Notes under the pieces: model-generated
Seen by the model: only the letters and a program-made list of their open reading frames with translations
Database searches by the model: none
Told to the model about the DNA's origin: nothing
Made by a program: the position numbers and the translations under genes
Shown here: piece by piece, positions 7,449 through 39,723 of the stretch
How the letters are laid out: every line of letters starts with the position of its first letter
Position numbering within the stretch: the stretch's first letter is position 1
Assembly (NCBI GenBank): GCA_964429215.1
Contig: CAYSAY010000004.1
Span: forward strand, 8,421 to 72,420
Direction of reading: 5' to 3'
Source: an uncultured Gammaproteobacteria bacterium
GTDB lineage: Bacteria > Patescibacteriota > Microgenomatia > UBA8517
Length of the DNA stretch: 64,000 bases

Positions 7449-10400
7449 TTAGGCTATAGTATCAGATGGTAAGGTTACAGTAAGTGAATAACCAGTTGAA
7501 GTAATTGTTCCAGTTGTAGAAACTGGAATATATTTTGTTTCTCCTGTTGACGACTTTCTTATTCTTACATAAATTGGGGTACTTACTGTGTAATTAAAAC
7601 TTTGTGTTGCAACACCATTTGAGGCTGTTCCTGTTGTTCCGCCTCCAACACCTGTTGAGGTAAAAGCAACACCTACAGTATTACTTGCAGCTCCGATTAA
7701 AGTAAAATCAGTATCCCCAACATTTACAATTGTATATTTAACTCCGATAACAAATGCTCCTGTTGTTACTGTTTGGGTATCCTCATTCATGAGTTCTACA
7801 TCATCACTTGTTCTGAAGATTGCAACTTGGGCAGTTGGTACAGGGTTTGTACTGGCATCAATTACTGTTACAGTTAGGTTAACAGAATTATTAACAATAG
7901 TCGATGAACCGTTCGACTCTCTGATTGTTGGGACGTCACCACCGTTTGAAACATTAATTGTTATAGCCCCTCCTGAAGCGTTATAGACATCTGCTTTGGC
8001 AGAATATATATAGTGGGTTTCTGAACCTGTTGAAGTTAAATCAACCTTCGGAGTACCTGCAATGGCAAAAGCTTTTGTAGTATGGAATGAAAGCGATGTT
8101 GTTGTCTGAGCGTTTATATAGTACATTGTTCCATCTGTTAACCCCATTGTGACAGAACCTCCTTGATCTTGATAATAAATTGCATCACCGGAAGCATATC
8201 CATGAATTGCGTCAACTGTCACAATATCTGTTCCCGAAACTACTCCAGTCCCAGTATTAAAACTTCTTTTGGCAACTCCACCTCCAGAAAATTGATGATT
8301 ACTAAATGTATAAGTTCCTGTTGCCGATATCCTAATTGAATGTCCAATGTCGCCATCGTGATTGTTTATAAAAGTTAAGTTAGTTAGCCCGTCACCTTCA
8401 GCTGCAGAAGTTATGGCAACCGCTCCTTGATTTGTAGTTGCTCTGGTATCGCGGATGGTTGAAGATGTTATATCTGCACCATTTAATACAATTTCTGAGC
8501 AATTATTAAAGATAAGTGTAGTAAATGTATAAACAGATCTTAAAGTAACTGTTGCACCTACAATAGTGGATCCTGAAAAGTCCCATGTTGCAGACGCTGA
8601 GGCACTAGCATTAAATCTCCAGTAGTAAGGAGTTCCACCAGTAAACAAACAGCTAGTAAATTTAATTGTATCTCCCGATTGACCGTTAAAATCAAAACCT
8701 ACTTGGTCATCATCAACATGCCACTGGGTAGTTTGTGAGGATGAACTTGCGCGAGTAGGGAATTGAAAACCTTTTAGATCACAAATAATATGTAAATCGT
8801 CTCCACCGCCAAATTGTGTTGGATGCCAAATATCTGCAACATCACCATTAACATCCCAAATAGGAAATAGATTTGTTCCATTAACTAAAGCTGCAGCAGC
8901 CTGCTGAAATGTAAGCGGGGAAGCAGAAGTTCCACCAGCTAATATTTGATTACCGGATTTTATTAAAAGTGACCAAGCACAGACAGTCGCTCCGAACGGA
9001 GCAGAGGCTGTTCCTAAAAATGTATCGACACCTTGTGCGCTAAGTGCTCCATGTTTTGCCCAAGCGGTATTTATGGTTTGGGTTGGTTGAATTGCAATTA
9101 CTTTTCTTTTAGCGCTATTTTGGTCGGCCGCATCTTTTGCTCCACATATCCAAGTTTTTCTTGGATTATCTGTTGTAAATATTGTTTTTATTTCAAGTCC
9201 ACAAACACCCCACTGTGCAGATGTTATAGTATCTCCCGGAGTTCTATCTTGTGTTAAGTTTTGGAAACCAGTGTGCATGGCCTGAGCTGGTGTTGCAGCA
9301 GTAGTGTCTGAAAGTTCTGTATAACCTGCAAGTGGCGCTCCAGCATTTGCAGCTCCTACACCGACAGTATAAAAAGAAGCATTATAGGCCGATCCATAAG
9401 CTGCCAGAGTAGTTAAAGGTTGTGCCGAATTACCTGTTGCCACTGTTTGTTGAACCATACCATCGCTTGTTGTTGTATCTACATTATTAAATTCACTTAG
9501 TGACCAAACTGCACCTGTTTGTGTTGTGCCCCCAAAAGCAATATCAAGCGTCCCTGTATAATCGGCGCCGGGTACACAACTCCAAACTGAAACACGATTT
9601 AAGTTGGTATTAAATAAAGTGGTTGAACGGCTGGTAAATGTTGGAGCTCCACCGCCAGTTGCTGTGATCGCGCTGACTGCCGTTGCAGATGTTCCGTGCG
9701 AATTTTCAACAGACATTAAGTATAATTTTCCTGCTTTCATTACTGCAGAGGCAGTTGTATAGCTAGTTGCATCAGTTGATGATGAGTTGGCGAGGATATG
9801 ACGGGGTGTAATACCTGGATTCATAAGTGTGATAGCAGTACCTTTATGCAAATCGTAAAATCCCAAATCGATGAAATCTCGAGGAAGCTGTAATAATAAT
9901 GATGTTAATAAATACCCACTTGACCAGTCGGGAATACCTAAAGTTCTAAGTGAATCATTTAACGAAACAGAGGCAACAAATTCACCACCAGTGTGTTGAA
10001 GAAGGTTGTTGGCTGTACCTGCAACAGGTATTGCTTGGTAAGATAAATGATAAGGATTAAGACCTGAGTCGGCAAGCCCAGTTGAAGCTCCTCTTAAAAG
10101 TGATCTTCCATCTTTAAGTGATTGGTCGAGAATTGGAGCATTGGTTGTCCAAGTAGCAGTAACCCTGCGTCTTATATAGTAGTAACTTGTGCCTTCACTG
10201 TTAATTGCTGTTGTCGCCCAATCTGTTGGTGGAGTAAAAGTAATATGCCCTTGTCCTGTTACTTGCCAAAGGGCAGTCCAGCTGGCAACATTAGGACGTA
10301 CTACAACTGTTAAAGTCGTCCATGCACCATTCCAATATTCCCATACACCTGTTGGTGTACCTCCGGATGTACCTGCACGAGAAATATCAAAACAAGCTGA

Positions 10401-23155: not shown

Positions 23156-23503
23156 ATGATAACAATACAGGATAGATCGTTTAAGTTTGGAGTTGAGATT
23201 GTTAAATTAACATTTTTATTACCCAAATCTCCAGCTGGATATGCATTGGCCAGTCAAATTGTTCGGTCTGGCACTTCGATTGGTGCAAATATTGAAGAAG
23301 CTCAAGGCGCTTCATCAAAGAAGGATTTTGTAAATAAGATGCAAATTTCACTCAAGGAAGCTCGAGAAACTTACTTTTGGCTAAAAATATTAAGAGAATC
23401 TAAATTGGTCCAGTTGGAAAATATAAGCTACTTATTGCAAGAGTGTGAAGAAGTGGTTAAAATCTTAATAACAATAGTCAAAAATTCAAAACTTAATAAA
23501 TAA
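23156..23503 (+). CDS. four-helix-bundle protein (23S rRNA intervening-sequence protein family, TIGR02436-like)
   Basis: FKFGVEIVKLTFLLP...SGTSIGANIEEAQGASSKKDFVNKMQISLKEARETYFWLKI is the typical family signature. Confidence 0.8.
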   Translation: MITIQDRSFKFGVEIVKLTFLLPKSPAGYALASQIVRSGTSIGANIEEAQGASSKKDFVNKMQISLKEARETYFWLKILRESKLVQLENISYLLQECEEVVKILITIVKNSKLNK

Positions 23504-23545
23504 TTTTTGTTTTAATTATTAACTATTAATTATTAACTATTAATT
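23504..23545. repeat. right flank: tandem AATTATTAACT(A) copies, the reverse complement of the left-flank AGTTAATAATT
   Basis: ttaattattaactattaattattaactattaattatg read directly from sequence. Confidence 0.5.
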
Positions 23546-23947
23546 ATGTCAACCAAAGTATTAATTGTTGAGGATGACCCATTGATGAGTCGGATGTATC
23601 AAAAGATATTCACTTTTGAAGGATATGAAGTTGTCATGGCTGGAAACGGCGAAGATGGCTTGGAAAAAGCAAAGAAAGACACCCCAACTATAATTCTTCT
23701 TGATGTCATGATGCCTAAGATGAACGGTTTGGAGATGTTGGAGAAATTAAAACTTGATCCAAAAAGTAAATCCATTCCCGTTATTATGCTCACTAATTTA
23801 GCAGGAGAAAAGGATGCAGAAAATGCATTGTCTAAAGGAGCTGTAAAGTATATTGTAAAGTCTGAATATGAACCCAAACAAGTTGTTGATATGGTCAAAG
23901 AAATTTTGGCAGGTTATACCAGAGATTTAGTTCCAGAAGCAAAATAA
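23546..23947 (+). CDS. response regulator, receiver domain only
   Basis: KVLIVEDDPLM...ILLDVMMPKMNG...; 133 aa with no output domain. Confidence 0.85.
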   Translation: MSTKVLIVEDDPLMSRMYQKIFTFEGYEVVMAGNGEDGLEKAKKDTPTIILLDVMMPKMNGLEMLEKLKLDPKSKSIPVIMLTNLAGEKDAENALSKGAVKYIVKSEYEPKQVVDMVKEILAGYTRDLVPEAK

Positions 23948-23957
23948 ACAACCTCTT

Positions 23958-24575
23958 TTAAAAAATATCGTTGAAGTAGCCATACGTTAGACTTGCTCTA
24001 TTTGGCCAGCCAGTTGTTACGTTAGTAAAGTCTGTAGTGCCTTTTGCATACCTATATGCTCCAGTTGATAACTCTTTTTGTATAAACCAAGCACCATCTT
24101 TATTTACAAAACCATAGTAGACATCAACTCCTGCATCATCAACTTCGGTAATGTTGTAGCCGTCAGTTGGCTTTTTCTCGGCTGGGTCAATTTGCACACC
24201 TGCCAAGTTTTTAACTGCTACAGTTCCTGGTCCTGGCATGCTTCCAAAGAATGCAGCTTCTGTACTTTTGGTAAAAATTGTCATTAAGAAGAGCGATCCT
24301 CCAGCAGCACCAATTAATTTCAAAAATTTTCTGCGCTCAGGATCATAATCTTTATTTTTTACTTTATTTAAGCTATCAGGAATTATATCTAATACTGGGT
24401 CAATTACAACTTTTGCCTGCCTTTTCTTAGGTAGTATTAACATCCCAAAATAGAAGGCGATAGGGAAGAAAATGACGGCACTTATTAACTCTGGATAGCT
24501 TTTTGTATCTAAAAATCCAGCAACAGTCATAAATGTTGTCAGTAGAAATGAATATAAAACAATTAGACCCTTCAT
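23958..24575 (-). CDS. membrane protein with internal twin-arginine-like motif (ERRKFLKLIGAAGGSLF) and C-terminal extracytoplasmic domain
   Basis: Two N-terminal TM helices, then RRKFLK followed by a hydrophobic stretch. Confidence 0.4.
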   Translation of the reverse strand: MKGLIVLYSFLLTTFMTVAGFLDTKSYPELISAVIFFPIAFYFGMLILPKKRQAKVVIDPVLDIIPDSLNKVKNKDYDPERRKFLKLIGAAGGSLFLMTIFTKSTEAAFFGSMPGPGTVAVKNLAGVQIDPAEKKPTDGYNITEVDDAGVDVYYGFVNKDGAWFIQKELSTGAYRYAKGTTDFTNVTTGWPNRASLTYGYFNDIF

Positions 24576-24808
24576 ATAATTTTAGTTAATGTATATAGAA
24601 TTAATATTACTAATATTCCAAGGTAAACTAAAGCAGATTTTTTATGTGTTGTTAGCTGAAAGTCATCAGAGTTTGTAAATAGTTCTGCTAAAAAGTAGGC
24701 GGGGATTGGGAGAAAGAAAAAACCCAAATACGGTGCAGTTGTGGTTGTGGTCAAAAATATAAAAGTTGAAAGCCCTGCCAGTATTATGACAAATAGTTTG
24801 TTGATCAT
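24572..24808 (-). CDS. small two-TM membrane protein
   Basis: Hydrophobic 78-aa ORF; 4-bp overlaps with both neighbours. Confidence 0.3.
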   Translation of the reverse strand: MINKLFVIILAGLSTFIFLTTTTTAPYLGFFFLPIPAYFLAELFTNSDDFQLTTHKKSALVYLGILVILILYTLTKII

Positions 24809-25086
24809 GGTGTAGGTGTCGTTTCTATTAATCCTGTAACGTCTAACGCTTCTCTTAGGGCTCTAATCTCTGCTTTAATTAACGTCAAGTCAGATTGAAT
24901 AGTAGCGGGGGTTGTAGGAACAGTTACGGGTGACGGGTTACCTGCCTGCGCAGGCAGGCGAGTTACGGGTTGCGGGACAGATATTGCAACAGGATTACTT
25001 ACTTTAGATAAAATATATAAATTAAAGCCTAGATTAATTAGGCATAGAAAGAAGATAATAACTAAGACTCTGGCGTACTTTTCCAT
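24805..25086 (-). CDS. small TM protein with Pro/Thr-rich tail
   Basis: N-terminal TM helix, PVTVPTTPATIQ tail, overlap-coupled with neighbours. Confidence 0.3.
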   Translation of the reverse strand: MEKYARVLVIIFFLCLINLGFNLYILSKVSNPVAISVPQPVTRLPAQAGNPSPVTVPTTPATIQSDLTLIKAEIRALREALDVTGLIETTPTP

Positions 25087-25105
25087 GGTTATAATAATAT
25101 TAACA

Positions 25106-27022
25106 CTATTCCTGTGGGATTTGAACTTGAGGATCTATGACTGGCTCTGCAGGTTGTGCTGGTGGGGTAGTTAATTCCTCTGTTGGTGCTGGTAATGTTT
25201 CTTCTTCAGTTGGCTTCTCAACTACTTTCTCATCCATTTTCTCAAGTTCTGACTTTGCAAGTTCGTAATCTTTTGAATCTTTTTCAACCAATTGCAATAC
25301 TAAGGTCATTTGTGCTTTTGCCTTATCTATTTCATTGTTATTTTTATAGGCCATGGCTAAATTATAATGTGAATTAGCAAAATCAGGTTTAGCGAGGACT
25401 GCCAGTTCAAATATCTTAATTGCATCTGAATATTTTTGTTCAGCAAAGTAAATTCCACCTAGTTTTATCCTCAAGATTGGATTAATTGGTTCCAAAAAAA
25501 TTGCTTGACCATAACTTTCGACAGCAAAGGTATTCGCATCTTTTGCGAAAGACGAAATGTTACTGTATATATCGCCAAGAGCCTCCCAGTTTGATGATTT
25601 TCTAGGATTTACTGAAACGCCTGCTTTTCCTTCTCTTATTGCTTGCTGAATAAGTTCTGCAATTGTTCTTTTGTCCTCATCTGTAATATCTGCTTTTTTG
25701 GCTAAATTTGTAGCTATTGCAATGTTTATTTCAGCAGAAGCCTTATGATATCTGTCTATGTAAGGGTTTATGGCGATTGCCTTATTTAAATTGTCATAAG
25801 CCTTCACGCCATCATTTGCAGAAATAGCTTTTAAGGCCACACCGTATATATATTCTGAATAAAATGCCTTGTAGCCAAAAAATATTCCTAATACTATAAA
25901 TGCAATGAGCGGTATAGAAAGTAAAATTATAGGTAACTTTGAAGAAAAACGACCAAAGCTCATATGAGTACTGTTATTTAAGGAGATTAATATAAATATG
26001 ATTGGTAATGTAACAGATGGAATAGGTAAGAGTATTGATATCAGGCTAAGGGCGACCACTCCGTAGTAAACATTATTTTGTTTATTATCTTTACTTAATG
26101 ATTTAACTAATATAATTACAAAGACTACAAGGCCTAGAAGTCCCACTTCAGAAAGAATTGTAAATAAATTATTAGAAGATACAATGAATTTATTGTTCCA
26201 GTTTGGAGTGTTGTTAAATTCAATTGGCCTTAATTTACTAAATCCTTCATTAAAATTTGATGGACCAAAACCAAGTAATGGGCTTTGTTTAATTGTGTCA
26301 ATCGCAATTGACCAACCAGTTTTGATTGATGGTAATTTTAATGACGTTTCTTTGCCCGGAAGAAGTGCAAAAATATTAAATCCAAGTGCTACTAAAATAA
26401 CTAAACTTGAAGCTCCATAAATCGCTTTTTGAGTTAGGTTTGAAACCTTAAGAGTTTTATTTATTGATACTGAAACTATTGTGACAAAAAATACTATAGT
26501 GCTCAGTAAATTGCCGAATATTTGGAAATTTTTTGGGACTACCCCAAAGAATGAAAATAACTGTACCAAAGACGCAGTAATTGCGGACATGATTAAAGTA
26601 TTTTCCACAATGGCTTTATCTTTATTGTCTAGTTGGTTAGTAAAGAAGTAGAGAATTGCCCCAAAAATTACAAATGCAGAAGCTCCGGGTAAAAATAAAG
26701 AATCATATTTATTTGGGGAGATAAAGATACTTGATAATATATAGGCTAGGGTAAATAAAAGTACGTAAAAATCAAGTTTTCCTACCTTAAACTCAAAACC
26801 TCCGTCAGTAAAATACTTAACTATTTTAATTACTGCCATTAAGATAACAGAAACTGATAGTAACAATAATTTTCCTGTTTCAAATGGATTATTAAAGACT
26901 GGTAAGAGGAACAGGGGGAATAAAAATATAGTCCCAAATAACAAATATTTATCAATTAGTTTTAATAATTTAATTAGCTTCATTGTGTGTTTAAGTTTTA
27001 CAAATTTTTTGATTCTTGTCAA
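25106..27022 (-). CDS. large polytopic membrane protein with C-terminal TPR repeats and Pro-rich tail (O-antigen ligase / O-oligosaccharyltransferase-like architecture suspected)
   Basis: About ten or more TM helices and a large loop, followed by TPR-like repeats (AIAINPYIDRYHKASAEINIAIATNLAKK, YNLAMAYKNNNEIDKAKAQ). Confidence 0.45.
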   Translation of the reverse strand: MTRIKKFVKLKHTMKLIKLLKLIDKYLLFGTIFLFPLFLLPVFNNPFETGKLLLLSVSVILMAVIKIVKYFTDGGFEFKVGKLDFYVLLFTLAYILSSIFISPNKYDSLFLPGASAFVIFGAILYFFTNQLDNKDKAIVENTLIMSAITASLVQLFSFFGVVPKNFQIFGNLLSTIVFFVTIVSVSINKTLKVSNLTQKAIYGASSLVILVALGFNIFALLPGKETSLKLPSIKTGWSIAIDTIKQSPLLGFGPSNFNEGFSKLRPIEFNNTPNWNNKFIVSSNNLFTILSEVGLLGLVVFVIILVKSLSKDNKQNNVYYGVVALSLISILLPIPSVTLPIIFILISLNNSTHMSFGRFSSKLPIILLSIPLIAFIVLGIFFGYKAFYSEYIYGVALKAISANDGVKAYDNLNKAIAINPYIDRYHKASAEINIAIATNLAKKADITDEDKRTIAELIQQAIREGKAGVSVNPRKSSNWEALGDIYSNISSFAKDANTFAVESYGQAIFLEPINPILRIKLGGIYFAEQKYSDAIKIFELAVLAKPDFANSHYNLAMAYKNNNEIDKAKAQMTLVLQLVEKDSKDYELAKSELEKMDEKVVEKPTEEETLPAPTEELTTPPAQPAEPVIDPQVQIPQE

Positions 27023-27086
27023 TACTATCTATTTCAAAATGTATATAAAGATATCTTTTGATATACTAATATAACTTTTAATATTT

Positions 27087-30000
27087 CTAATTTAGATCAA
27101 TAATCCACCAGTTAAATTCAACATCGGTATCAATTGCTTCATTAAAACCAATTGTAAATTCGTTTAAATCTTTTGATTTGACATACAAAACTTTATTTTG
27201 GGTTGATGATACTGGCGTTACATATATCAAAGAATTAGTTTTTACTTTATTGTTTATAATTTTTAATTCAGTTGTGTTTGCTGTCAAAATTGCAGTTCCT
27301 GCAATTGAATTCGAATTTATTTGACCTTCAATAATTGTTGCAGATTCTGTTGCAATATCTGTAGTATTACTTCCAATAATTAAATTACCAAGAACCTTCA
27401 GATTGCCGGCAACCTCAAGGTTTCCTGTAAACAATGCGTTTCCGTCTGTGTCAATTTTGATTTTTCCAGCCATAATTTCAATTGGTGCTATTGCCAAAGA
27501 TTGGATGGATAAGGTGCCATCAATTGAGTCAAGCGATTTTGCAGTTAAGTTTTCTGCAACGAATAGGGAAGTGACAGTTGCATTTCCTGTTACAAAAAGA
27601 TTACTTGCGATAACGTCTGATATAGTTGCTGATGATGTTGCAGTATCAGTTGACCAATTAATTGCTTCTGCAAATAATGCTTGGTTGCCTTCAACTTCAG
27701 CCAAAAGTGCTTCAATCTCATCAAGTCTTTCAGACTCTATTTGATTTGCATATAATGTTCCAGAAATTGTTGCATCACCTGCAAATTCTGCATTTCCAGC
27801 TCCATCAATTACTGCAACTTCCTCATTATTATCTCCTTTTATAACAAGTTTTGAAGCAGTTTGGCTGTCATCAGGTTGCAAATCAATTATTAAATCAGTG
27901 TTAGCAATAGGGGAGATGATTTCAGATGTTTTCATACTTTCTATTTTTCGGTCTAATTCTTGAATTGCTCCAGCGAGTACGGCGGTTAATTTGCTGTAAT
28001 CTAGATTTTTATAACCTGCGGTGTCTGTGATGACAAGCTCTGGGAAAATCTGTTCGACATCTTGGGCAAGGAAACCAAGTGAGTTAGCGTCCCCTGTATT
28101 GTATTCGCCGTTCCAGGTGAAGCGAACGGGTTTGAGTTGTTGCACTAGTTCTAGATTGTCGGTAATGGAGGTAATATTTGTTTTTAAACGCGCATCTGAG
28201 AGGGCGGCAGTATTGTCGGTACAGGCCTCGTCGGCATTTAAGTCTAGACAAACATTACCCTTAACATCAAATAACCTGTCGGGAGTGGTGTCGCCTACAC
28301 CGACGTTGCCGGCATTAGGGTTGAGAGCGATATCTCGATAGGCAGTGCCAGGCTTCATTGCCTGAATCCAAGAATAATCCCCATCATGTACTCCAAAGAA
28401 AAGTGACTCGTCAGTGGACGTACCAGTGCCAGTGGTAAGACCCAACATACTAGACCCATTATATACAGAGGATGATCCGGTGATCTGCAATTTTGAACCA
28501 GGAGAAGTAACTCCGATGCCGACGTTGCCCCTCAGGGCTGTGGTCCCAATGCTCGTATTACCTAGTACGACCGTGTTTGTCCCAAGACCGGTGGCGTTGT
28601 AACCAATCACAATTTCGTTGGTATCGCCGTTTGCCAATGCTTTTGTCGAGTTACCAAGATATAGACTTGTATTGCTAGTCTGGTTGGCAGTTGCTCCACC
28701 TGAGATATATCTTCCAGCGTTTACACCGATTGCGTCGTTATAATAGCCAGTAGTGATGTTATAGAGAGCGTTTAGTCCTATAGCAGTGTTTTGATAACCA
28801 GTTGTATTTGATAGAAGAGTATTTATCCCTACTGCGGTGTTGTGCCAGCCAGTATTTACACTCAGAGCGTTTAAGCCTAAAGCAGTTGTACCAGGATCTA
28901 TAATCCCTGCTCTTGTTGTGCCATTGTAGATGACACCACCTGTCGTGTTGACTCTAGGCTCTTTGACACCTAGAGAGGCATCGGCAATATTATCGGTATA
29001 GGTAGTAGTGGTGTTGTCTGCAATAGTGGCTACCAATGCCAAAAGACTATTTAAGCCTCCTGCCGTAGATCGATATATCTTTCTAGATGTGACTGATGTA
29101 TCTGCTGAAACAGGAATAGCTGATAAATTGACCTGCTGATTGACAGGACTGACTACTGATGAGACTATGCCGCTTTCGGTTTCTCCGACAGCTGTGACAA
29201 AGGAGATGCGGTAGTAATAGGCTCCGTTAAGGTTGCCCGCCGTCGCATTGACGGCAACCGTAGGCGCTCCAGGGGCATCGACTTGATCGAAGCGTAGATG
29301 ACCATTTTTGAGATTGAGCTTTTGAGTAGGAGTTGTTGTCCCGATGCCGACGTTGCCAGAGTTGTTTATAGTCATTCTGTAGGATGGGGTAAATGTATTT
29401 CCGATAGCAGTAGTACTGTCAGTATGAAACGATATCGCGCCTCCTGATTGCCAGATGCCTGAGGCACCTCCAGCAGCTCTGAATGTCCACGCATTGGCGT
29501 CGGTAATAGCAGTTCCAGTATATTCAGCTCCTCCGGAAATCAAAGCTTGACCTCCGCCATCTGAAGTGAGATAGAGGCCTTCATTAGTTGTACTTTGTCT
29601 TAAGTTAAACCCAGATTTATTTGCAGCATTTGCTACTGTAACGAGCTGATCTGGAGCTGTTATCCCGATGCCGACGTTGCCAGAGGTAGGGGCCAAAAGT
29701 ATGTTGTTAAAGCCTGTCTGATTACCTTGGATTGATAAAGCACCAGTCGCACTAATTCTAGTAAAATCAAAACCACTTGTATCGCTAGCATTACTAAGTC
29801 TGAGAATGATTGCATCACTAGTAACTTGAGAAACAACGAGTTTACCACCCGGTGCAGTCGTTCCAATACCGACATTGCCAGTGGAATCAATCCTCATCCT
29901 TTCGTTTGTAGCGGAATTTCCTGTGCCAAAACGAATATCACCTGAATATCCAGATGTGCCACTTGTTCCGAACTCTATCCAAGATAAGTTGTTATATCCA

Positions 30001-33000
30001 TTATCTATTGCATACGAACCAGAGGCAATAGAAGAGTTTAATCTAATACCAGTATAACTCCAATCTGCAGAGGCTGAATTTTTCGAAGATGTCATGGTCA
30101 ATCCACGCCAAAGATTACTACCACCCTCTTTGTACTCGAATTTATCTAAGAAGCTATGGCTAGAATAGGTAGTACTGTTTGGTGCAGTAAAACCTTGAAG
30201 ATGGAGATTGGCGGCTGGAGCTGTGACTCCTATTCCAACATAACCTAAATCAGTCCCCGCACCACCTTTGATTGTCATCCTTGTAGCATTAGTATCACCG
30301 GTTGAGACCGTGACATCGTCTGTAGATGTGCCACCAGCCAGTACTAATCCTCCACCAGTTGAGTTAACTGTGTACGAACCAGTTCCTATACTAGTATTTG
30401 TGTAGTTGCCGACCGATACATGTTGCAAGGTAATTCCATCAGTTCTACCTGCGCCAACTAATCTAAAATCATCATCTCCAACCACATCTAATTGATAATT
30501 AGGTAAATTTGTTCCAACGCCAACTCTGCCTGCGTTTGTAATAACAAACTTTGGTGTACCTGAAGCACTGGCTGTAAACAAATCTCCCGCTTTGGTTTGG
30601 TTTACTATTAATGCAGCGTGACCTACATTTCCACCTGCGGGATTTTCTATTACCCAGTTTGTTGCTGTTAAATAATTAGCAAGTGTCGTTGGTGTTGCTG
30701 AAAATGTAATTGTAGATGCCCCCGCTGAATTTGCCAGAATTCCACCATCCATAAAGAGTGTGCCATCAATCTCGAGATCTTGTAATAATAAGTCGTTTGA
30801 TGCACTAATGTTTCCACCATGCGCTGTAGTTGCGATTCCTAACCTTGAATAAGTAGCGGCAGTTGTACCTCCAACTTGAAGAACTCCAGATATAGCTAAA
30901 TCATCACTTATATCAACTTCATCAGTTCCATCAGAAATAGCACCTCCTGAAAATGTTAAATTCCCAGCATTAATAACTGCTGAATTACCTAGATCTATTC
31001 CTGCAGTTGTAAATGTTCCTGAAAGAACTATACCTTTGTTTATAGTTCCTGTTGTATCAGCAATATCTATTCCATTTGTGATATTTCCTACAGTGTTTGA
31101 AATGTGTATTGCGTCCGTTATTCCTGAGTTTCCTGCACTATCAATTAACAATGCATCAGTTACTGCAGTTGTTCCTCCTACTGTTGTATCTAATTGTTGT
31201 AGTTTAAGTAGACTTTCAGTTGCAGTATCAGTAAATAATCCAACCACAGCATTATTAATTACTAAACCATTTTGATTAGTAGCAGATCCACCATTGTTAT
31301 TTATATTAAAAGTAAATGCATCAAGTGCTCCTGTTGGTGTCCATCCAAAGGTTGTTGGATTCACTCCCATTGCTAGAGTTAAAGAGGTGGATGGAGCTGT
31401 TAATTGATCCCATCTTAAAGCAGAGGCTGTAATCCCAACAGTACATGTCAATGTTCCTGTTGCATTAGCCACAGTACAACCAGTACTTCCAGATCCACCA
31501 CCTATTAAAATATCACCAGTTGCAGTTCCATTTAAGTTGAGTGCTCCTGAACCTTTTCCATCGATGGACATTGCGACATTTGTATCGGATCCAAATGCGG
31601 TTTGAGCAACTGTATTACCAGTTGCAGATGGCGTAAAAGTAAATCCGTTAGCTGCTGTTCCCGAAACTCTGGCTAAATTAAATACAGGTATACCTGACTG
31701 GGATGCTGTTAATATATTTTGGTTACCAGTTTCGTTGAAGATGGCAAGAGCTTTACCTGTTGAAATACCGTTGACATGTAGTTTGGATGTCGGACCTGTT
31801 GTCCCAATTCCTACATAACCATTATATTGGATAGTCAATCTTGCATCAGAAACATCTGCGTTTGACGAATCACCAGTACCATCAACAGTAAGGTGAAGAC
31901 TGCCTAGTCCAAAACCAACCGCCGTGTTTTCGAATATAATTCCTGCCTTTGCATAAGAATCTGAGGGTTGGGCCAAAGTTCTAAATCTCATACCTACAGC
32001 AGTTCCTGATCCTCCTGCATTTGCGGGGTTATCAAGTGTTAAGGCGTTGACAAACGCAGTCGTTGCTGGTGTTGAAACATGTAATGGTGATGCAGAGATT
32101 CTACTACCAATACCAACCCTACCAAGTGTTAATTCTGAAACTCCAAGTGTCGATGGGTAGGCTATTGTCCCTGTTGTTCCTGTGTCTAAATATGGTGTTG
32201 CAGTATCTGACCAGTATTGGTCTTGTGCTGCTGTTGATCTTCCATATATTCTATATGCGGTGAAGCCTGTTATGTCTGTCCATGCGACGGAGCAAGATCC
32301 TGTAGATCCAGTTGTAACTGTGCTAGAAGTTTCTGATGAAGCAATTGATTCAAGACCATTTCCGTCTGTGTAACTTACTTTATAATAATATGTACCTGCA
32401 ACAAGTGTTCCTCCTGTATCGGAACATGTAGCTACAACACCTGTAGGGGCTACAAGAGTACGAAGATAAGCACCACCTCCAGTGATTTGTAATGATGAAG
32501 ATGGAGTGGTTGTTCCAATTCCAACATTAGCACCTGAAAAATAAAACGCGTCGCTTGTGTTAAAACCAAATGTTCCTGCATCTGAATCTGTGGCTTCAAA
32601 GTTAAGTGTTGGATTGGCAGATTGATCACCGCCAAATAAAAATGTTCCTAAAGATTCATCAATAGAAAATATGGAGGCGGCAAGTGTTGTGCCACCTATG
32701 GCAAAGTCATTTGTTGTCGTCGTTGGTGATATTACTGCTGATGCAAGTGACCAGATTGAAGATCCTCCACCCGTCGTTATCGCAGCGTCTAAATCATCTA
32801 GAACATCCTGAACAGTAGTTGAAGCACTATTATCAAATTCGTCGAATGCACCGATTAAAGATGCTCCAGATGTGATATTGGTTGACCCAACATCGTTTAA
32901 GCCAATTGCTCCAATCGTTAAATCTGTGCCTGTTGCCAAGGTAAGACCTCCACCTGATGTAAAATCAGTGCCTGCGGCACCAATATTTGTAATAATTGAG

Positions 33001-34820
33001 TTTCCAGCATCTATTCCAGCAGTTGTAAATGTTCCAGAAAGTACAATACCTTTATCAATTGTTCCAGTAGTATCAGCAATATCAATTGCATTTGTAATAT
33101 TTCCTACGGTATTTGAAATATGAATTGCGTCCGTTATTCCAGAATTTCCTGCAGAATCAATTAATAATGCGTCTGTAACAGCAGTTGTACCAGTTCCTGT
33201 AGTGTCTAATTGTTGAAGTTTAAGTAATGATTCAGTAGCAACATCAGTAAATGCTCCTACAACTGCATTATTTATCACAAGTCCATTTTGTGCTGTTGTA
33301 GATCCACCATTATTGTTTACATTCATTGTAAATGCATCTAATGCTCCTGTTGGTGTCCATCCAAAGGTTGTTGGATTCACTCCCATTGCTAGAGTTAAAG
33401 CCCCATCAGGAGCCGTCAAGGCATTCCATTTTGATGTAGTAGCAAAAGTAGAGAAGTCAGTTACACAGTTTGTTTCTCCATCTCCTGTACAGAATTTTCC
33501 AGCTTCTACCGTGTCATCTGTTACTGCATTATTGTAAAGTGAGATTCCTGATGAAACATATAAATCTGCTCCAACTGTGGTAAGTCCTGTTGAATCAACT
33601 GAAAATTTGGAAGTAGGGGAAACACCACTTAAAAAATTAATAAAATTATAACCACTGGCTGCACTTGCAACTGTTCCAGAATAAAGAGAACCAGAAGTTA
33701 TGTTTGCATTAGTTGCATTTACGAATCCATTTGCAGATAGCCCAGGAGCTGCACCTTCAAAAGTTAAATCGAGTGTTCCAACACCATCTGGATTAATTGT
33801 TACCACACCATTACTTGTGTTTGGTGTGCTGATTGTCATTGCTAAGCCTTCAACTGCAAAAGTTCCAGAAGTTGATTGTAATTTTGGAGATGCGTTAGCA
33901 AGAACAAGTGTTCCTGAAGAATTTATGTAAGGTATTGTAGAAGTTCCTGTACCTGCTGGGAAGCCTTGAAGTGTTTCAGAGTTTAAAGCATAGGCAACTG
34001 TAGCAATCTGTATCCTAGGGGTCGCTTCTGCATCAGCCGCAACTGTAACTCCTACCCAGACTGCAGAGTTTTCAGAGAATACTGATGAAGCAATTTCAGC
34101 TCCACAGCTAGAACCTAAAAGAGTTGAAAATATTCCATCTTGATCAGGTGTTATGGAACAAGTTCCAGAGTTCCAAAGAGTAGTTCCACCTGAACTTGCA
34201 TCATATAACCTAAAAACTACGTTTGTGGCAGTTGTAATTGGGTTACCAACATTACTTGTCAGTCTTCCTTGAAAAGATAAAAATCTATTAGGTCTGGTTA
34301 ATGCTGCAGGGAAAGCAAGTGATCTATCAGCTGAATAAAAGACTTGATCATAGAAGGCATAACCAGATACTGAAGTGAATAGGATTAATATAGCTATGTG
34401 AATGTAAGTAGCCAAAGGATATGAGTGATATTTTTTGTACCAGTTTGGTCTTGTAAAGAACACTTTGAACAAAGCATTTTTAATTTTTGGTTTAGTCTCA
34501 AATTTTGCCAAAATTCTATCTTGCCATGACTTAATTATCTTCTTGTAGCTAGAAACGTTTTCAACACCTTCCATAAAGTTGTGTCCCATAAAGCTTGAAT
34601 AGCTACGAAGTGTAGAAAGCCTTCTGTTAAGTGTGGAAAGTGGGGTAGTTAATTTCTCAGTCTCAATATATTCTGTAACTAAGCTTCTGTCGATCTTTCT
34701 ATCCTTTGAAAAGTGTAAGAAATTGACGATATCAGACTTGTAATACTTCAAAGACTTCTGTGAAACACCACGAAGACTTAAATATTTCAAAAACTCTTCA
34801 ATTTTGTTTGTGGCAGTCAT
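27087..34820 (-). CDS. 2577-aa giant protein: N-terminal integrase-type SAM-like domain, one TM helix, huge Thr/Gly/Ala-rich fibre region with GNVGIGTTxPxxKL tail-fibre repeats, Peptidase_S74 intramolecular chaperone domain, ~290-aa C-terminal extension
   Basis: N-terminus IEEFLKYLSLRGVSQKSLKYYKSDIVNFLHFS...LSTLNRRLSTLRSYSSFM resembles the XerD N-terminal SAM-like fold. TM helix is YPLATYIHIAILILFTSVSGYAFY. Chaperone domain is LSDARLKTNITSITDNLELVQQLKPVRFTWNGEYNTGDANSLGFLAQDVEQIFPELVITDTAGYKNLDYSKLTAVLAGAIQELDRKIE. Confidence 0.75.
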   Translation of the reverse strand: MTATNKIEEFLKYLSLRGVSQKSLKYYKSDIVNFLHFSKDRKIDRSLVTEYIETEKLTTPLSTLNRRLSTLRSYSSFMGHNFMEGVENVSSYKKIIKSWQDRILAKFETKPKIKNALFKVFFTRPNWYKKYHSYPLATYIHIAILILFTSVSGYAFYDQVFYSADRSLAFPAALTRPNRFLSFQGRLTSNVGNPITTATNVVFRLYDASSGGTTLWNSGTCSITPDQDGIFSTLLGSSCGAEIASSVFSENSAVWVGVTVAADAEATPRIQIATVAYALNSETLQGFPAGTGTSTIPYINSSGTLVLANASPKLQSTSGTFAVEGLAMTISTPNTSNGVVTINPDGVGTLDLTFEGAAPGLSANGFVNATNANITSGSLYSGTVASAASGYNFINFLSGVSPTSKFSVDSTGLTTVGADLYVSSGISLYNNAVTDDTVEAGKFCTGDGETNCVTDFSTFATTSKWNALTAPDGALTLAMGVNPTTFGWTPTGALDAFTMNVNNNGGSTTAQNGLVINNAVVGAFTDVATESLLKLQQLDTTGTGTTAVTDALLIDSAGNSGITDAIHISNTVGNITNAIDIADTTGTIDKGIVLSGTFTTAGIDAGNSIITNIGAAGTDFTSGGGLTLATGTDLTIGAIGLNDVGSTNITSGASLIGAFDEFDNSASTTVQDVLDDLDAAITTGGGSSIWSLASAVISPTTTTNDFAIGGTTLAASIFSIDESLGTFLFGGDQSANPTLNFEATDSDAGTFGFNTSDAFYFSGANVGIGTTTPSSSLQITGGGAYLRTLVAPTGVVATCSDTGGTLVAGTYYYKVSYTDGNGLESIASSETSSTVTTGSTGSCSVAWTDITGFTAYRIYGRSTAAQDQYWSDTATPYLDTGTTGTIAYPSTLGVSELTLGRVGIGSRISASPLHVSTPATTAFVNALTLDNPANAGGSGTAVGMRFRTLAQPSDSYAKAGIIFENTAVGFGLGSLHLTVDGTGDSSNADVSDARLTIQYNGYVGIGTTGPTSKLHVNGISTGKALAIFNETGNQNILTASQSGIPVFNLARVSGTAANGFTFTPSATGNTVAQTAFGSDTNVAMSIDGKGSGALNLNGTATGDILIGGGSGSTGCTVANATGTLTCTVGITASALRWDQLTAPSTSLTLAMGVNPTTFGWTPTGALDAFTFNINNNGGSATNQNGLVINNAVVGLFTDTATESLLKLQQLDTTVGGTTAVTDALLIDSAGNSGITDAIHISNTVGNITNGIDIADTTGTINKGIVLSGTFTTAGIDLGNSAVINAGNLTFSGGAISDGTDEVDISDDLAISGVLQVGGTTAATYSRLGIATTAHGGNISASNDLLLQDLEIDGTLFMDGGILANSAGASTITFSATPTTLANYLTATNWVIENPAGGNVGHAALIVNQTKAGDLFTASASGTPKFVITNAGRVGVGTNLPNYQLDVVGDDDFRLVGAGRTDGITLQHVSVGNYTNTSIGTGSYTVNSTGGGLVLAGGTSTDDVTVSTGDTNATRMTIKGGAGTDLGYVGIGVTAPAANLHLQGFTAPNSTTYSSHSFLDKFEYKEGGSNLWRGLTMTSSKNSASADWSYTGIRLNSSIASGSYAIDNGYNNLSWIEFGTSGTSGYSGDIRFGTGNSATNERMRIDSTGNVGIGTTAPGGKLVVSQVTSDAIILRLSNASDTSGFDFTRISATGALSIQGNQTGFNNILLAPTSGNVGIGITAPDQLVTVANAANKSGFNLRQSTTNEGLYLTSDGGGQALISGGAEYTGTAITDANAWTFRAAGGASGIWQSGGAISFHTDSTTAIGNTFTPSYRMTINNSGNVGIGTTTPTQKLNLKNGHLRFDQVDAPGAPTVAVNATAGNLNGAYYYRISFVTAVGETESGIVSSVVSPVNQQVNLSAIPVSADTSVTSRKIYRSTAGGLNSLLALVATIADNTTTTYTDNIADASLGVKEPRVNTTGGVIYNGTTRAGIIDPGTTALGLNALSVNTGWHNTAVGINTLLSNTTGYQNTAIGLNALYNITTGYYNDAIGVNAGRYISGGATANQTSNTSLYLGNSTKALANGDTNEIVIGYNATGLGTNTVVLGNTSIGTTALRGNVGIGVTSPGSKLQITGSSSVYNGSSMLGLTTGTGTSTDESLFFGVHDGDYSWIQAMKPGTAYRDIALNPNAGNVGVGDTTPDRLFDVKGNVCLDLNADEACTDNTAALSDARLKTNITSITDNLELVQQLKPVRFTWNGEYNTGDANSLGFLAQDVEQIFPELVITDTAGYKNLDYSKLTAVLAGAIQELDRKIESMKTSEIISPIANTDLIIDLQPDDSQTASKLVIKGDNNEEVAVIDGAGNAEFAGDATISGTLYANQIESERLDEIEALLAEVEGNQALFAEAINWSTDTATSSATISDVIASNLFVTGNATVTSLFVAENLTAKSLDSIDGTLSIQSLAIAPIEIMAGKIKIDTDGNALFTGNLEVAGNLKVLGNLIIGSNTTDIATESATIIEGQINSNSIAGTAILTANTTELKIINNKVKTNSLIYVTPVSSTQNKVLYVKSKDLNEFTIGFNEAIDTDVEFNWWIIDLN
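30930..31420 (-). repeat. internal long direct repeat, copy B, of the giant gene
   Basis: Near-identical DNA to 32940..33430 at a constant 2010-bp offset; encodes RWDQLTAPSTSLTLAMGVNPTTFGWTPTGALDAFTFNINNNGG... Confidence 0.7.
32940..33430 (-). repeat. internal long direct repeat, copy A, of the giant gene
   Basis: e.g. ggtgtccatccaaaggttgttggattcactcccattgctagagttaaag is present in both copies. Confidence 0.7.
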
Positions 34821-38229: not shown

Positions 38230-39723
38230 TTAGAAGGTAGGAACAGCTGTATATTTAACCTTATTAAAGTAAAATCCTGCTGGCTGTGTTGCTGTAATAT
38301 CTATTCTATAACAAACATAGGCACTTGATGAGTCAACTGGTCCTGCATTTGTCATCAAATGTGCGGTTGATGCAGCTCTATCTTCTGATGCCTCTTGGTC
38401 CGCAAATTGCTTAGCATTAAATGTTCCTGCGCTAGTATTGTATTCAAATATGCCATCAGTACCTGTTACGTTTTGCAATGAATATCCAAGTCCTGGGAAT
38501 GATGTAGGGTCTGAACCCCAGTCTCTTAATGTTTGGTGAGTACAGCCAGTTCCGTCACATACAGTGTCTTGAATACAATCTACAGATTCTCCAGCTCCTG
38601 CACCAGTACATGCAACGCCATCTTTACCCATCTGATCGTTTTCTTCTGCGTACACCTTGTATCCTGCTGTTGAATTAGTTGAAACTGTTAGTTGGTGATT
38701 TGTGTTATGAGTTGCCGCTAAATATGTTGATGATAATGTACCCCAGGCAACAGATGTCGCGGTAGTATCAGGTGAACTCGCGGTTCTTGTTATTCCGCAA
38801 TATGAACCAGAATCAGCAGAAATTCCTGCAATTGTAAATGATAATGTTTCATCAACTGTTGCAGAGATCAATACTCCTTCAATAGGGGAAACTACGACAT
38901 CTGATTGGTCAAGTGTATTATCTCCACCATCTCTTGACTTAATATTTATCTGATACGAATCTGCTTGGCCTTGAGTATGGGTTGTAAGCGGTGCAGGATT
39001 AATTAAACCTGGTGCTGAATCAATTGTAATTGTTAGTGTGGTTCCTGCTGCGCAAGTCGTAGTTGCTCTATTGATTTGTAATAAGTGATCAGTTGATGCG
39101 GTTCCTGCAGTTAACGATGCAACTGTCCAGTTAACATCAGTACAACCTGTAATTGTGATATCAGAGGTTGTCATAGGACCAATATCAAATCCGTTTGTAG
39201 CTTTTGTTGCTGCAGTATCTGGAATACCATCGTTTGTTTTTCCAGTTACGTCAACCGCAGGTATTGTAATTAACAAGTCCCCGTTTGCTGGAATTACTGA
39301 AGTTGTTACAAATGAGAGAATTAAACTTCCTGATTGTGTTGCAACTACGTAATCTGTTGCTAATAATGTGGAAGATAGAGCCGTTGACATATTAAAAGTA
39401 TTTGCCCCAATGATGTTTGCGACAGAATAGTTCACGTTTCCGTTACATCCGTTTTCAGTTGCGTTAGGAAAACAAACTGTGTCTTTTGGAAAGAGGTGAT
39501 TGGTATTATTGTCTGCATTTCCTGAAGCATCAGTTGTAACTGTTGAGGAACCAGAAGTTCCTGAAGCTACACCACCTTTATAAGAAAATCTTGCATTTGA
39601 TAAGGTTGCAGAAGCAGAAGTAAAGTTTGCTGAATAAGTTTTTTTGGAAGGTAGTACAAAACGATACACAAGACCACAAAACACTAAAATTAAAGCAAAA
39701 GTAAGTATTTTGTTTTTGGTCAT
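38230..39723 (-). CDS. secreted Thr-rich protein, C-terminal domain paralogous to the 241-aa protein
   Basis: Signal peptide; C-terminus ...KQFADQEASEDRAAS...YRIDITATQPAGFYFNKVKYTAVPTF, compare ...RQFADRSNTES...YKVNIGTGQPSGVYQNVITFIAIPSY. Confidence 0.5.
   Translation of the reverse strand: MTKNKILTFALILVFCGLVYRFVLPSKKTYSANFTSASATLSNARFSYKGGVASGTSGSSTVTTDASGNADNNTNHLFPKDTVCFPNATENGCNGNVNYSVANIIGANTFNMSTALSSTLLATDYVVATQSGSLILSFVTTSVIPANGDLLITIPAVDVTGKTNDGIPDTAATKATNGFDIGPMTTSDITITGCTDVNWTVASLTAGTASTDHLLQINRATTTCAAGTTLTITIDSAPGLINPAPLTTHTQGQADSYQINIKSRDGGDNTLDQSDVVVSPIEGVLISATVDETLSFTIAGISADSGSYCGITRTASSPDTTATSVAWGTLSSTYLAATHNTNHQLTVSTNSTAGYKVYAEENDQMGKDGVACTGAGAGESVDCIQDTVCDGTGCTHQTLRDWGSDPTSFPGLGYSLQNVTGTDGIFEYNTSAGTFNAKQFADQEASEDRAASTAHLMTNAGPVDSSSAYVCYRIDITATQPAGFYFNKVKYTAVPTF

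Follow-up and report, generated by a model that had tools for sequence, protein, structure and literature searches.

In the 64,000-nt stretch of DNA analysed here (the window; positions are counted from its first letter), a single giant gene of 7.7 kb raises the question of whether one part of it has come from another genome. The gene is an open reading frame (ORF) on the reverse strand (27087..34820, from the ORF list and its translation) which encodes a protein of 2577 amino acids (aa), a surface protein of an AT-rich bacterium, probably of the Patescibacteria type of the Candidate Phyla Radiation (CPR) to judge by the source names of homologs. The interval 28000-29700, which lies wholly within this single ORF, had been singled out in a preliminary description as a GC-rich, horizontally acquired or recombined fibre module. 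The explanation that we consider best, with a probability of roughly 0.7, is that aa 1714-2292 are a phage-fibre-like cassette that was acquired horizontally, swapped in by recombination and has since been partly ameliorated, lying in frame and internally in the protein and being followed by a native tail of 285 aa.

A codon-level discontinuity inside the giant gene

The GC content of the interval 28000-29700 is 46.7%, compared with 34.5% in the whole window and 38.6% in the remaining giant gene, and it is the richest coding stretch in the window. Lines of 55-70% GC, as reported earlier, do occur, and the quoted 60-mer at 29221-29280 reaches 66.7%, but only four of the 28 sixty-base lines have at least 55% GC and segments of 300 bases stay at 43-49%. 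A likelihood scan with two change points, run on the third codon positions of the giant gene, delimits the block to codons 1701-2282 (27975..29720, reverse strand), which nearly matches the interval first described. The GC content at third codon positions (GC3) is 0.41 in the block and 0.204 in the remainder of the gene, with a log-likelihood gain of 47.5. The 46 other ORFs of the window have GC3 values of 0.15-0.33, and the block stands 6.3 standard deviations above all other coding stretches of 582 codons in the window. At the 3′ edge GC3 falls sharply, to 0.16 over the next 138 codons of the tail; on the 5′ side it is 0.26-0.30 in the upstream modules and 0.17-0.18 in the stalk.

The shift is not accounted for by the encoded protein. 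GC at the first and second codon positions (GC1 and GC2) is flat along the giant gene while GC3 doubles, and the combined fraction of Gly, Ala and Pro is no higher in the block (0.22-0.33) than elsewhere in the stalk (0.22-0.32). From its own amino acids and the codon usage of the genome the block would be expected to have 39.6% GC and is observed to have 46.6%; with the same codon-usage model, the remainder of the giant gene is expected at 39.2% and observed at 38.6%. According to these model values, of the excess of 0.12 that the block has over the window, about 0.05 (approximately 40%) is due to amino-acid composition, which is common to the whole gene, and about 0.07 (approximately 60%) to codon choice, in agreement with the earlier proposal that composition explains only part of the shift. 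A match between the GC3 of the block and that of other Gly/Ala-rich sequences had been named as the outcome that would speak against an import, and no such match was found. The comparison used as composition controls three further large ORFs on the reverse strand (7449-11927, 2825-5428 and 38230-39723), which lack a Pfam domain, have GC2 values of 0.51-0.55 and probably encode further Thr/Gly/Ala-rich surface proteins; their GC3 is 0.21-0.22, compared with 0.41 in the block. A purely amino-acid effect of a Gly/Ala/Pro-rich segment, in favour of which it can be said that the whole gene is GC-richer than the window (38.6% vs 34.5%) through GC1 and GC2, is thus refuted.

The excess lies nearly entirely in C-ending codons. 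The frequency of C at third positions (C3) is 0.30 in the block and 0.12-0.13 outside, while that of G (G3) is unchanged (0.11 vs 0.12), and seven C-ending codons are enriched 2-4-fold, with fractions in the block and in other window genes, respectively, of 0.33 and 0.12 for GGC, 0.35 and 0.14 for GCC, 0.25 and 0.10 for ACC, 0.49 and 0.12 for GTC, 0.37 and 0.12 for ATC, 0.20 and 0.03 for CTC, and 0.46 and 0.14 for TTC. The relative synonymous codon usage (RSCU) of the block correlates with that of the window genes at 0.58, compared with 0.76-0.95 for equal-sized pieces of the remaining giant gene. The codon usage of the block is significantly unlike that of the resident genome, and the amino-acid content does not explain the difference.

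Module architecture and coincident breakpoints

The cassette is a string of five modules on the reverse strand, each of which is individually raised in GC3 (0.34-0.44; P from 5e-3 to 1e-7). M1 (29358..29681, aa 1714-1821; GC3 0.34) starts at a GNVGIG motif, M2a (28887..29357, aa 1822-1978; GC3 0.41) is a beta-rich "YYYRISF" domain that is widespread in viral contigs, and M2b (28530..28886, aa 1979-2097; GC3 0.39), which contains NTAIG-type repeats, is the sub-domain most widely common to phyla and phages, at 50-72% identity. M3 (28311..28529, aa 2098-2170; GC3 0.42) is flanked by two GNVG[IV]G motifs, and M4 (27945..28310, aa 2171-2292; GC3 0.44, C3 0.37) is an S74 intramolecular-chaperone module with 81-83% identity to the proteins P0040 and P0042. 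The Peptidase_S74 domain itself (PF13884; 28032-28199, aa 2208-2263), which had rightly been placed within the interval, scores 61.2 bits (cut-off 22; E = 1.1e-16) over positions 1-57 of the 58-position profile. In the translation, the sequence S2208-D-A-R-L-K2213 (28182..28199, reverse strand) fits the S74 autoproteolysis motif SDxxxK, which is given as the catalytic motif of S74 fibres in the relevant passages of a study of Bdellovibrio fibres (PMC10769870). While the usual position of the domain in phages is the extreme C-terminus, here it is followed by 314 residues; an internal S74 is found in P0040 as well.

The motif G-x-V-G-[IV]-G is present in nine copies in the giant protein. At the 5′ edge of the cassette, GNVGIG at aa 1714 is encoded by GGC AAC GTC GGC ATC GG, the reverse complement of which is the 17-mer CCGATGCCGACGTTGCC on the forward strand (29665..29681). 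The 17-mer occurs in three exact copies (28513-28529, 29341-29357 and 29665-29681; chance expectation 0.01), and copies with three mismatches are located at 28294-28310 within the block and at 29863 just outside, which bears out the GNVGIG repeats noted earlier. All four in-block GxVGIG copies are encoded by this sequence or a near variant, whereas the copies outside use A/T-ending codons; the in-block copies continue with x-x-x-P, as GNVGIGTTTPTQKL, GNVGIGITAP and GNVGIGVTSP.

A similar codon preference accompanies the motif in other genomes. In a survey of 197 unique GNVGIG-type sites in 37 loci from hosts with GC3 below 0.35, the flanks have a GC3 of 0.15-0.28, and precisely the eight codons of G-N-V-G-I-G-T-T stand out with 0.31-0.61 before GC3 falls again. 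No rise accompanies Pro (+9) and Leu (+13), which are conserved to the same degree, and little or no comparable excess is seen in two other conserved motifs or where these residues are encoded at other places in the ORFs concerned. Across the loci L001-L168, and whatever the GC class of the host, the codons for GNVGIG(TT) have a GC3 that lies 0.2-0.3 above that of identical residues in the rest of the respective ORFs, and the commonest encoding of GNVGIG, GGCAACGTCGGCATCGG, is the repeated 17-mer of the window.

Within the protein, similarity to phage tail-fibre families is confined to the block. The block matches 18 PHROG families, 12 of which belong to the tail category, and the best of them, phrog_5668 (E = 3e-15), aligns with aa 34-582 of the block and has reached profile position 1540 of 1567 at the block's end; a PHROG search with the 1700 aa upstream and with the 295-aa tail yielded no match. 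The sole PDB sequence match of the block is Bd2133 (8OND), at aa 63-143 of the block (E = 2e-7) and over GNVGIG-type repeats. In 259 retrieved homologs the match boundaries cluster at or near the motifs at aa 1431, 1648, 1714, 1822, 2098 and 2171, with further clusters at aa ~1970-1980, ~2030 and ~2290-2300, and neighbouring modules differ in their closest relatives. Directly upstream of the cassette, three older fibre-like modules bounded by GxVG[IV]G motifs (29682..30530, aa 1431-1713, reverse strand) have a nearly native GC3 of 0.26-0.30 and distant homologs (27-31%), some of them with S74. The whole giant gene is not a phage-type fibre gene; fibre-like are the block and some diverged upstream modules. 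Of the earlier notion of a module inserted into a "giant fibre gene", the fibre-like module holds, but the designation of the gene does not, and the cassette is internal, preceding a conserved native tail.

The breakpoints in homology and in composition coincide. The best homologs of the block, P0004 (60% identity) and P0003 (55%), start aligning at aa 1713, at the GNVGIG motif that opens M1 and 13 codons from the GC3 change point, and at the other end the joint of the tail with the upstream sequence is the point where GC3 collapses. The tail (27090..27944, aa 2293-2577, reverse strand) has a native GC3 of 0.16-0.22. An indexed protein search with aa 2283-2577 returned 19 matches, compared with more than 2000 for the block, and a metagenome scan with the tail alignment returned 231 relatives. 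In the loci L163, L164 and L165 the similarity to the giant protein begins only at aa 2277-2301; in L163 and L165 the tail homolog is followed by a TPR/Wzy_C gene, in synteny with the window, and in L164 it adjoins a retroelement. In approximately 65 further tail-bearing loci the match always starts at aa 2275-2350, and at aa 2275-2302 in all except five (L187, L215, L221, L227 and L248), the majority of which include no more than a few codons upstream. The sequences upstream of the tail are diverse: in L163 a giant protein with Laminin_G_3 and without S74, in the protein P0122 an intein-splicing (Hint) domain, and an SDxRxK motif within 400 residues upstream in one of the approximately 65 loci. 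Since the tail homology starts at one point in all these loci, the tail is a conserved C-terminal module that is joined to many different upstream sequences. The cassette is absent at the same position in L163, L164, L165 and the approximately 65 other loci, the tails of which are only 35-64% identical, so these are not close relatives. Among 48 tail-bearing genes, the GC3 of the 580 upstream codons minus that of the tail is +0.03 ± 0.07, and the +0.22 of the giant gene is equalled only by L188 and L189. Structure prediction for the tail as a monomer is confident for the last ~80 aa only and suggests a small beta-sandwich like the tailspike C-terminal domains 7EEA and 7W1C, with marginal fold matches (E ~1e-3); a PDB sequence search with the tail returned no match.

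Relatives of the block and the origin of its composition

Relatives of the block were compared in 133 loci (62 genomic and 71 viral) by setting the GC3 of the module against that of the surrounding ORFs. Module GC3 tracks host GC3 (r = 0.905) with a difference of 0.001 ± 0.106, and in the 54 hosts with GC3 below 0.30, where the standard deviation is 0.073, only one reaches the excess of +0.18 seen in the block. After amino-acid control the mean C3 excess of the family is +0.017. Since module GC3 follows host GC3 in these relatives, the family is not GC3-rich by nature; taken together with the confinement of fibre homology to the block and the coincidence of the breakpoints, this supports the acquired or recombined module of the preliminary description.

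The nearest relatives of the block are all found in GC-richer contexts (44-55% GC). P0004 is a complete protein of 474 aa from locus L167 and P0003 a complete protein of 731 aa from locus L168; their alignments span aa 1713-2107 and 1713-2131, respectively, and both contigs are compact and phage-like, with 44-46% GC. L167 carries an HNH endonuclease gene and tail-fibre-type genes, and in L168 the fibre gene alone had a PHROG match (phrog_4636, tail spike). The fibre genes of both loci have C3 values of 0.38-0.43 and G3 values of 0.09-0.11, the same C-specific pattern as in the block. The S74 relative P0040 (81%) comes from a genome of 55% GC, and two Saccharibacteria loci, L001 and L002, match at 61-65% identity with a GC3 of 0.54-0.60 in the match. 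L167 was found in the assembly ERZ27247817 and L168 in ERZ27247837; the organism of the window is represented by contigs in ERZ27247785 and ERZ27247817, which belong to the same accession series, and the assembly of L167 is thus one that also holds a contig of that organism. A comparison of RSCU with candidate source contigs singled out no donor.

If the cassette was imported, its source would be a gene pool with more C-ending codons, such as that of phages, or of other bacteria, in which this fibre family occurs. The 5′ join would lie at or near the sequence that encodes GNVGIG, and the 3′ join where S74 meets the tail. The codons of the cassette would since have drifted only partly toward the usage of the AT-rich host; the intermediate RSCU fits such partial amelioration, without proving it. 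Several observations weigh against an import. The donor search, in which the block was compared with word-indexed proteins and with contigs of genomes, viruses and metagenomes, found nothing above 83% protein or 72% DNA identity, the best matches being at 55-83% and 65-72%, respectively; as no donor was found, we infer the transfer and its direction rather than demonstrate them. The RSCU of the block is nearer to that of the host (r = 0.58) than to that of the nearest relatives (0.20-0.29), the 5′ edge of the block is graded and not sharp, and an excess that is specific for C is not predicted by a simple GC-richer donor genome. Moreover, in the four closest relatives (L001, L002, L167 and L168) the homologous gene exceeds its neighbours in GC3 by 0.13-0.25, and there is a weak correlation (rho = 0.23) between GC3 excess and identity to the block; the excess in the closest relatives could reflect an in-place process acting on this sub-clade instead of repeated transfer.

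The rival to be taken most seriously, although we regard it as unlikely, is that C3 was raised in place, by local selection for C-ending codons or by GC-biased gene conversion in recombination-prone repeats, with no foreign origin of the sequence. The GC3 enrichment of the GNVGIG(TT) codons in every host class, the elevated values of the four nearest relatives above their neighbours and the restriction of the excess to C, which resembles a codon preference, would all agree with such a process. The motif enrichment, however, is limited to eight codons, and GC3 of the block is still 0.39 once the four 8-codon motif stretches are removed. The remaining mRNA is without the bias, and this includes the paralogs of the GxVGIG modules and of the YYY-domain (the latter at aa ~815-890); the 133 relatives have no net GC3 excess and merely the small one in C3 given above. 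Biased gene conversion would in addition be expected to raise G3 along with C3, and the bias ends exactly at the start of the tail-family homology.

A technical origin is very improbable. In an assembly chimera, a segment of a homologous gene from a GC-richer organism would have been joined in frame during metagenome assembly, and the source contig (113 kb) is indeed metagenome-derived; also, two contigs of the same organism from other ENA assemblies, L170 and L171, which cover 23830-26990 and 23529-25993, end at 26990 and 25993, beside or short of the giant gene. Such an artefact would need two in-frame joins that keep the module order, and no repeat of a length that could mislead an assembler links the block to the outside, where the motif copy differs at 3 of 17 bases; the graded 5′ edge likewise disagrees with an abrupt join. 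An independent single-run Logan contig (ERR3094302), reached by a look-up with a 205-aa neighbour protein, is 100% identical to 23516-31355 (7840 bases) and crosses both junctions. Still harder to credit is a constraint on the block from an overlapping antisense gene or a structured RNA. An ORF of 106 aa is present on the forward strand at 28021-28341, but its product is low-complexity and Ser/Leu-rich, its GC3 of 0.49 is not host-like and it covers less than 20% of the block, so that it looks like a by-product of the sense composition, and Rfam finds two tRNAs only in the whole window.

As for the contig ends of L170 and L171 near the giant gene, they may reflect strain variation or repeats there. 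A diversity-generating retroelement was also considered for the block and rejected, as the template/variable repeat in L164 seems to be directed at a different gene and the window has no reverse transcriptase match, tblastn of the L164 reverse transcriptase against it having returned none. In L164, the repeat pair that resembles such a retroelement is 113 nt long with 88% identity (1144-1256 vs 3191-3303), lies beside RVT_1 and Avd-like genes and the tail homolog, and appears to target the C-terminus of a different gene of 401 aa. An ORF of 115 aa in the window (23156-23503, forward strand) is 33% identical to the reverse transcriptase-associated 23S_rRNA_IVP (Avd-like) protein of L164.

Fibre modules in a cellular surface protein

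A Pfam scan of the 2577-aa protein reveals two domains only, a Phage_int_SAM_1-like domain at the N-terminus (aa 7-77) and the Peptidase_S74. The sequence further contains one hydrophobic helix (aa 134-157) and, between this helix and the fibre cassette, a long Thr/Gly/Ala-rich stalk. By comparison with characterised families, the protein would be anchored by the helix as a single transmembrane segment, with the SAM-like domain in the cytoplasm and ~2400 extracellular residues forming a long projecting fibre, in which four short beta-helix or beta-sandwich modules, each opening with a GNVG[IV]G "capping-loop" motif, would be followed by the S74 chaperone. In characterised S74 fibres, the domain brings about assembly of the trimer and is afterwards released by its own cleavage at the Ser of SDxxxK. 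By analogy, S74 would govern the folding of the cassette into a trimeric beta-helix and would then cleave itself at S2208. As S74 sits 314 residues from the C-terminus, such self-cleavage would free the 285-aa tail as well. A swap of the cassette would alter the exposed binding surface of the fibre tip, possibly toward the host cell to which such bacteria attach.

Elsewhere in the gene, the stalk contains an internal duplication (30993-31384 vs 33009-33400, 83% identity over 392 nt) that encodes a repeated "LTLAMGVNPTTFGWTPTGALDAF..." region, and the first 100 codons (34521-34820), which cover the Phage_int_SAM_1-like region, have a GC3 of 0.39, in the top 1% of 100-codon stretches (99th percentile 0.355). 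The neighbouring genes encode a TPR/Wzy_C protein, a Big_1 ORF, an MreB-size ORF, a histidine kinase and an ArgRS-like ORF; among the ORFs of the window that were scanned, none was noted as a phage gene.

The closest parallel among cellular proteins is found in the mosaic adhesive trimer (MAT) fibres of Bdellovibrio bacteriovorus (Caulton et al. 2024, PMC10769870), to which Bd2133 (PDB 8OND) belongs and which the block matches directly over "...RMTI..sGNvGIGT..Pt.KL..." repeats. As far as the corresponding passages of that paper describe them, MAT fibres share with the giant protein that they are cellular, non-phage surface fibres of phage-like beta-helix modules with recurring motifs, which in the giant protein are putative capping loops, that many of them carry an S74 with SDxxxK, there at the end of the fibre, and that one end is conserved and the other diversified. 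Similar motifs are described there as capping loops of the beta-helix modules (PMC10769870), with a consensus V-G-G/N-pi-x-x-P-x-x-x-L to which the in-block motif is similar with an offset of one residue. The differences are likewise evident. By the same description, MAT proteins are ~1000 aa long and have a signal peptide and a conserved N-terminal beta-rich domain of ~130 aa, whereas the giant protein has 2577 aa, an integrase-SAM-like N-terminus and a transmembrane helix; in the giant protein, moreover, S74 is internal and the conserved tail module follows. The passages concerned report no compositional evidence for cassette import (PMC10769870). With phage S74 fibres and tailspikes, of which the K1F endosialidase and the T5 L-shaped tail fibre are named in the same passages, the block has in common an S74 domain above the Pfam threshold and the Ser/Lys motif. 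Unlike those, however, it forms part of a cellular gene with housekeeping genes nearby, outside any phage genome with virion genes, and its S74 is not terminal. The block would work like a phage S74 fibre and a MAT fibre, but the whole protein is a member of neither as these are defined, given its N-terminus, its size, the internal S74 and the gene context.

Phage tail-fibre genes exchange modules by recombination at conserved motifs, as in the swapping of the T-even distal fibre adhesin. The giant gene is alike in that a short conserved motif marks the limits of homology blocks and in that the closest relatives change from one module to the next. It differs in its motif, which is GNVGIG, a putative capping loop; in the recipient, a giant gene of a cell; and in the evidence, which is compositional and comparative. 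In genomic islands, acquired DNA is compositionally atypical and ameliorates over time. The block likewise has codon usage that departs from that of the host and is intermediate between the host and the likely source, but it is a sub-genic, in-frame piece of 1.7 kb without flanking mobility genes. Both the evolution of fibres by module swapping and the compositional traces of transfer are already well known, and the cassette in the giant gene is a new example; a literature search joining Candidate Phyla Radiation, S74 and tail fiber gave no paper with all three terms among the best 10 of 38 matches.

Taken together with the ends of homology blocks at GNVGIG motifs, the eight-codon rise in GC3 suggests, as a hypothesis only, a nucleotide-level constraint tied to recombination. 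A bolder and doubtful extension would be that the ~24-nt sequence encoding GNVGIGTT (GGC AAC GTC GGC ATC GGN ACN AC) is conserved at the nucleotide level across AT- and GC-rich hosts because it serves as a recombination linker or gene-conversion hot spot for the exchange of fibre modules between phage and cellular fibres across phyla, in which case the block might be a recent product with its 5′ join at such a linker. No paper in the collection searched contains "GNVGIG".

Attachment to other cells is the presumed way of life of the ultra-small CPR bacteria, in which giant surface proteins are leading candidates for recognising the host. The analysis marks aa 1714-2292 as the candidate part for binding specificity, and illustrates that sub-genic breaks in third-position composition can locate recombination joints in giant mosaic genes. 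It suggests that, distally, one such surface protein consists of an exchangeable cassette derived from phages and, attached to it, a conserved tail module, which, if true, would mean that CPR bacteria share one pool of binding modules with phages and with predators such as Bdellovibrio.

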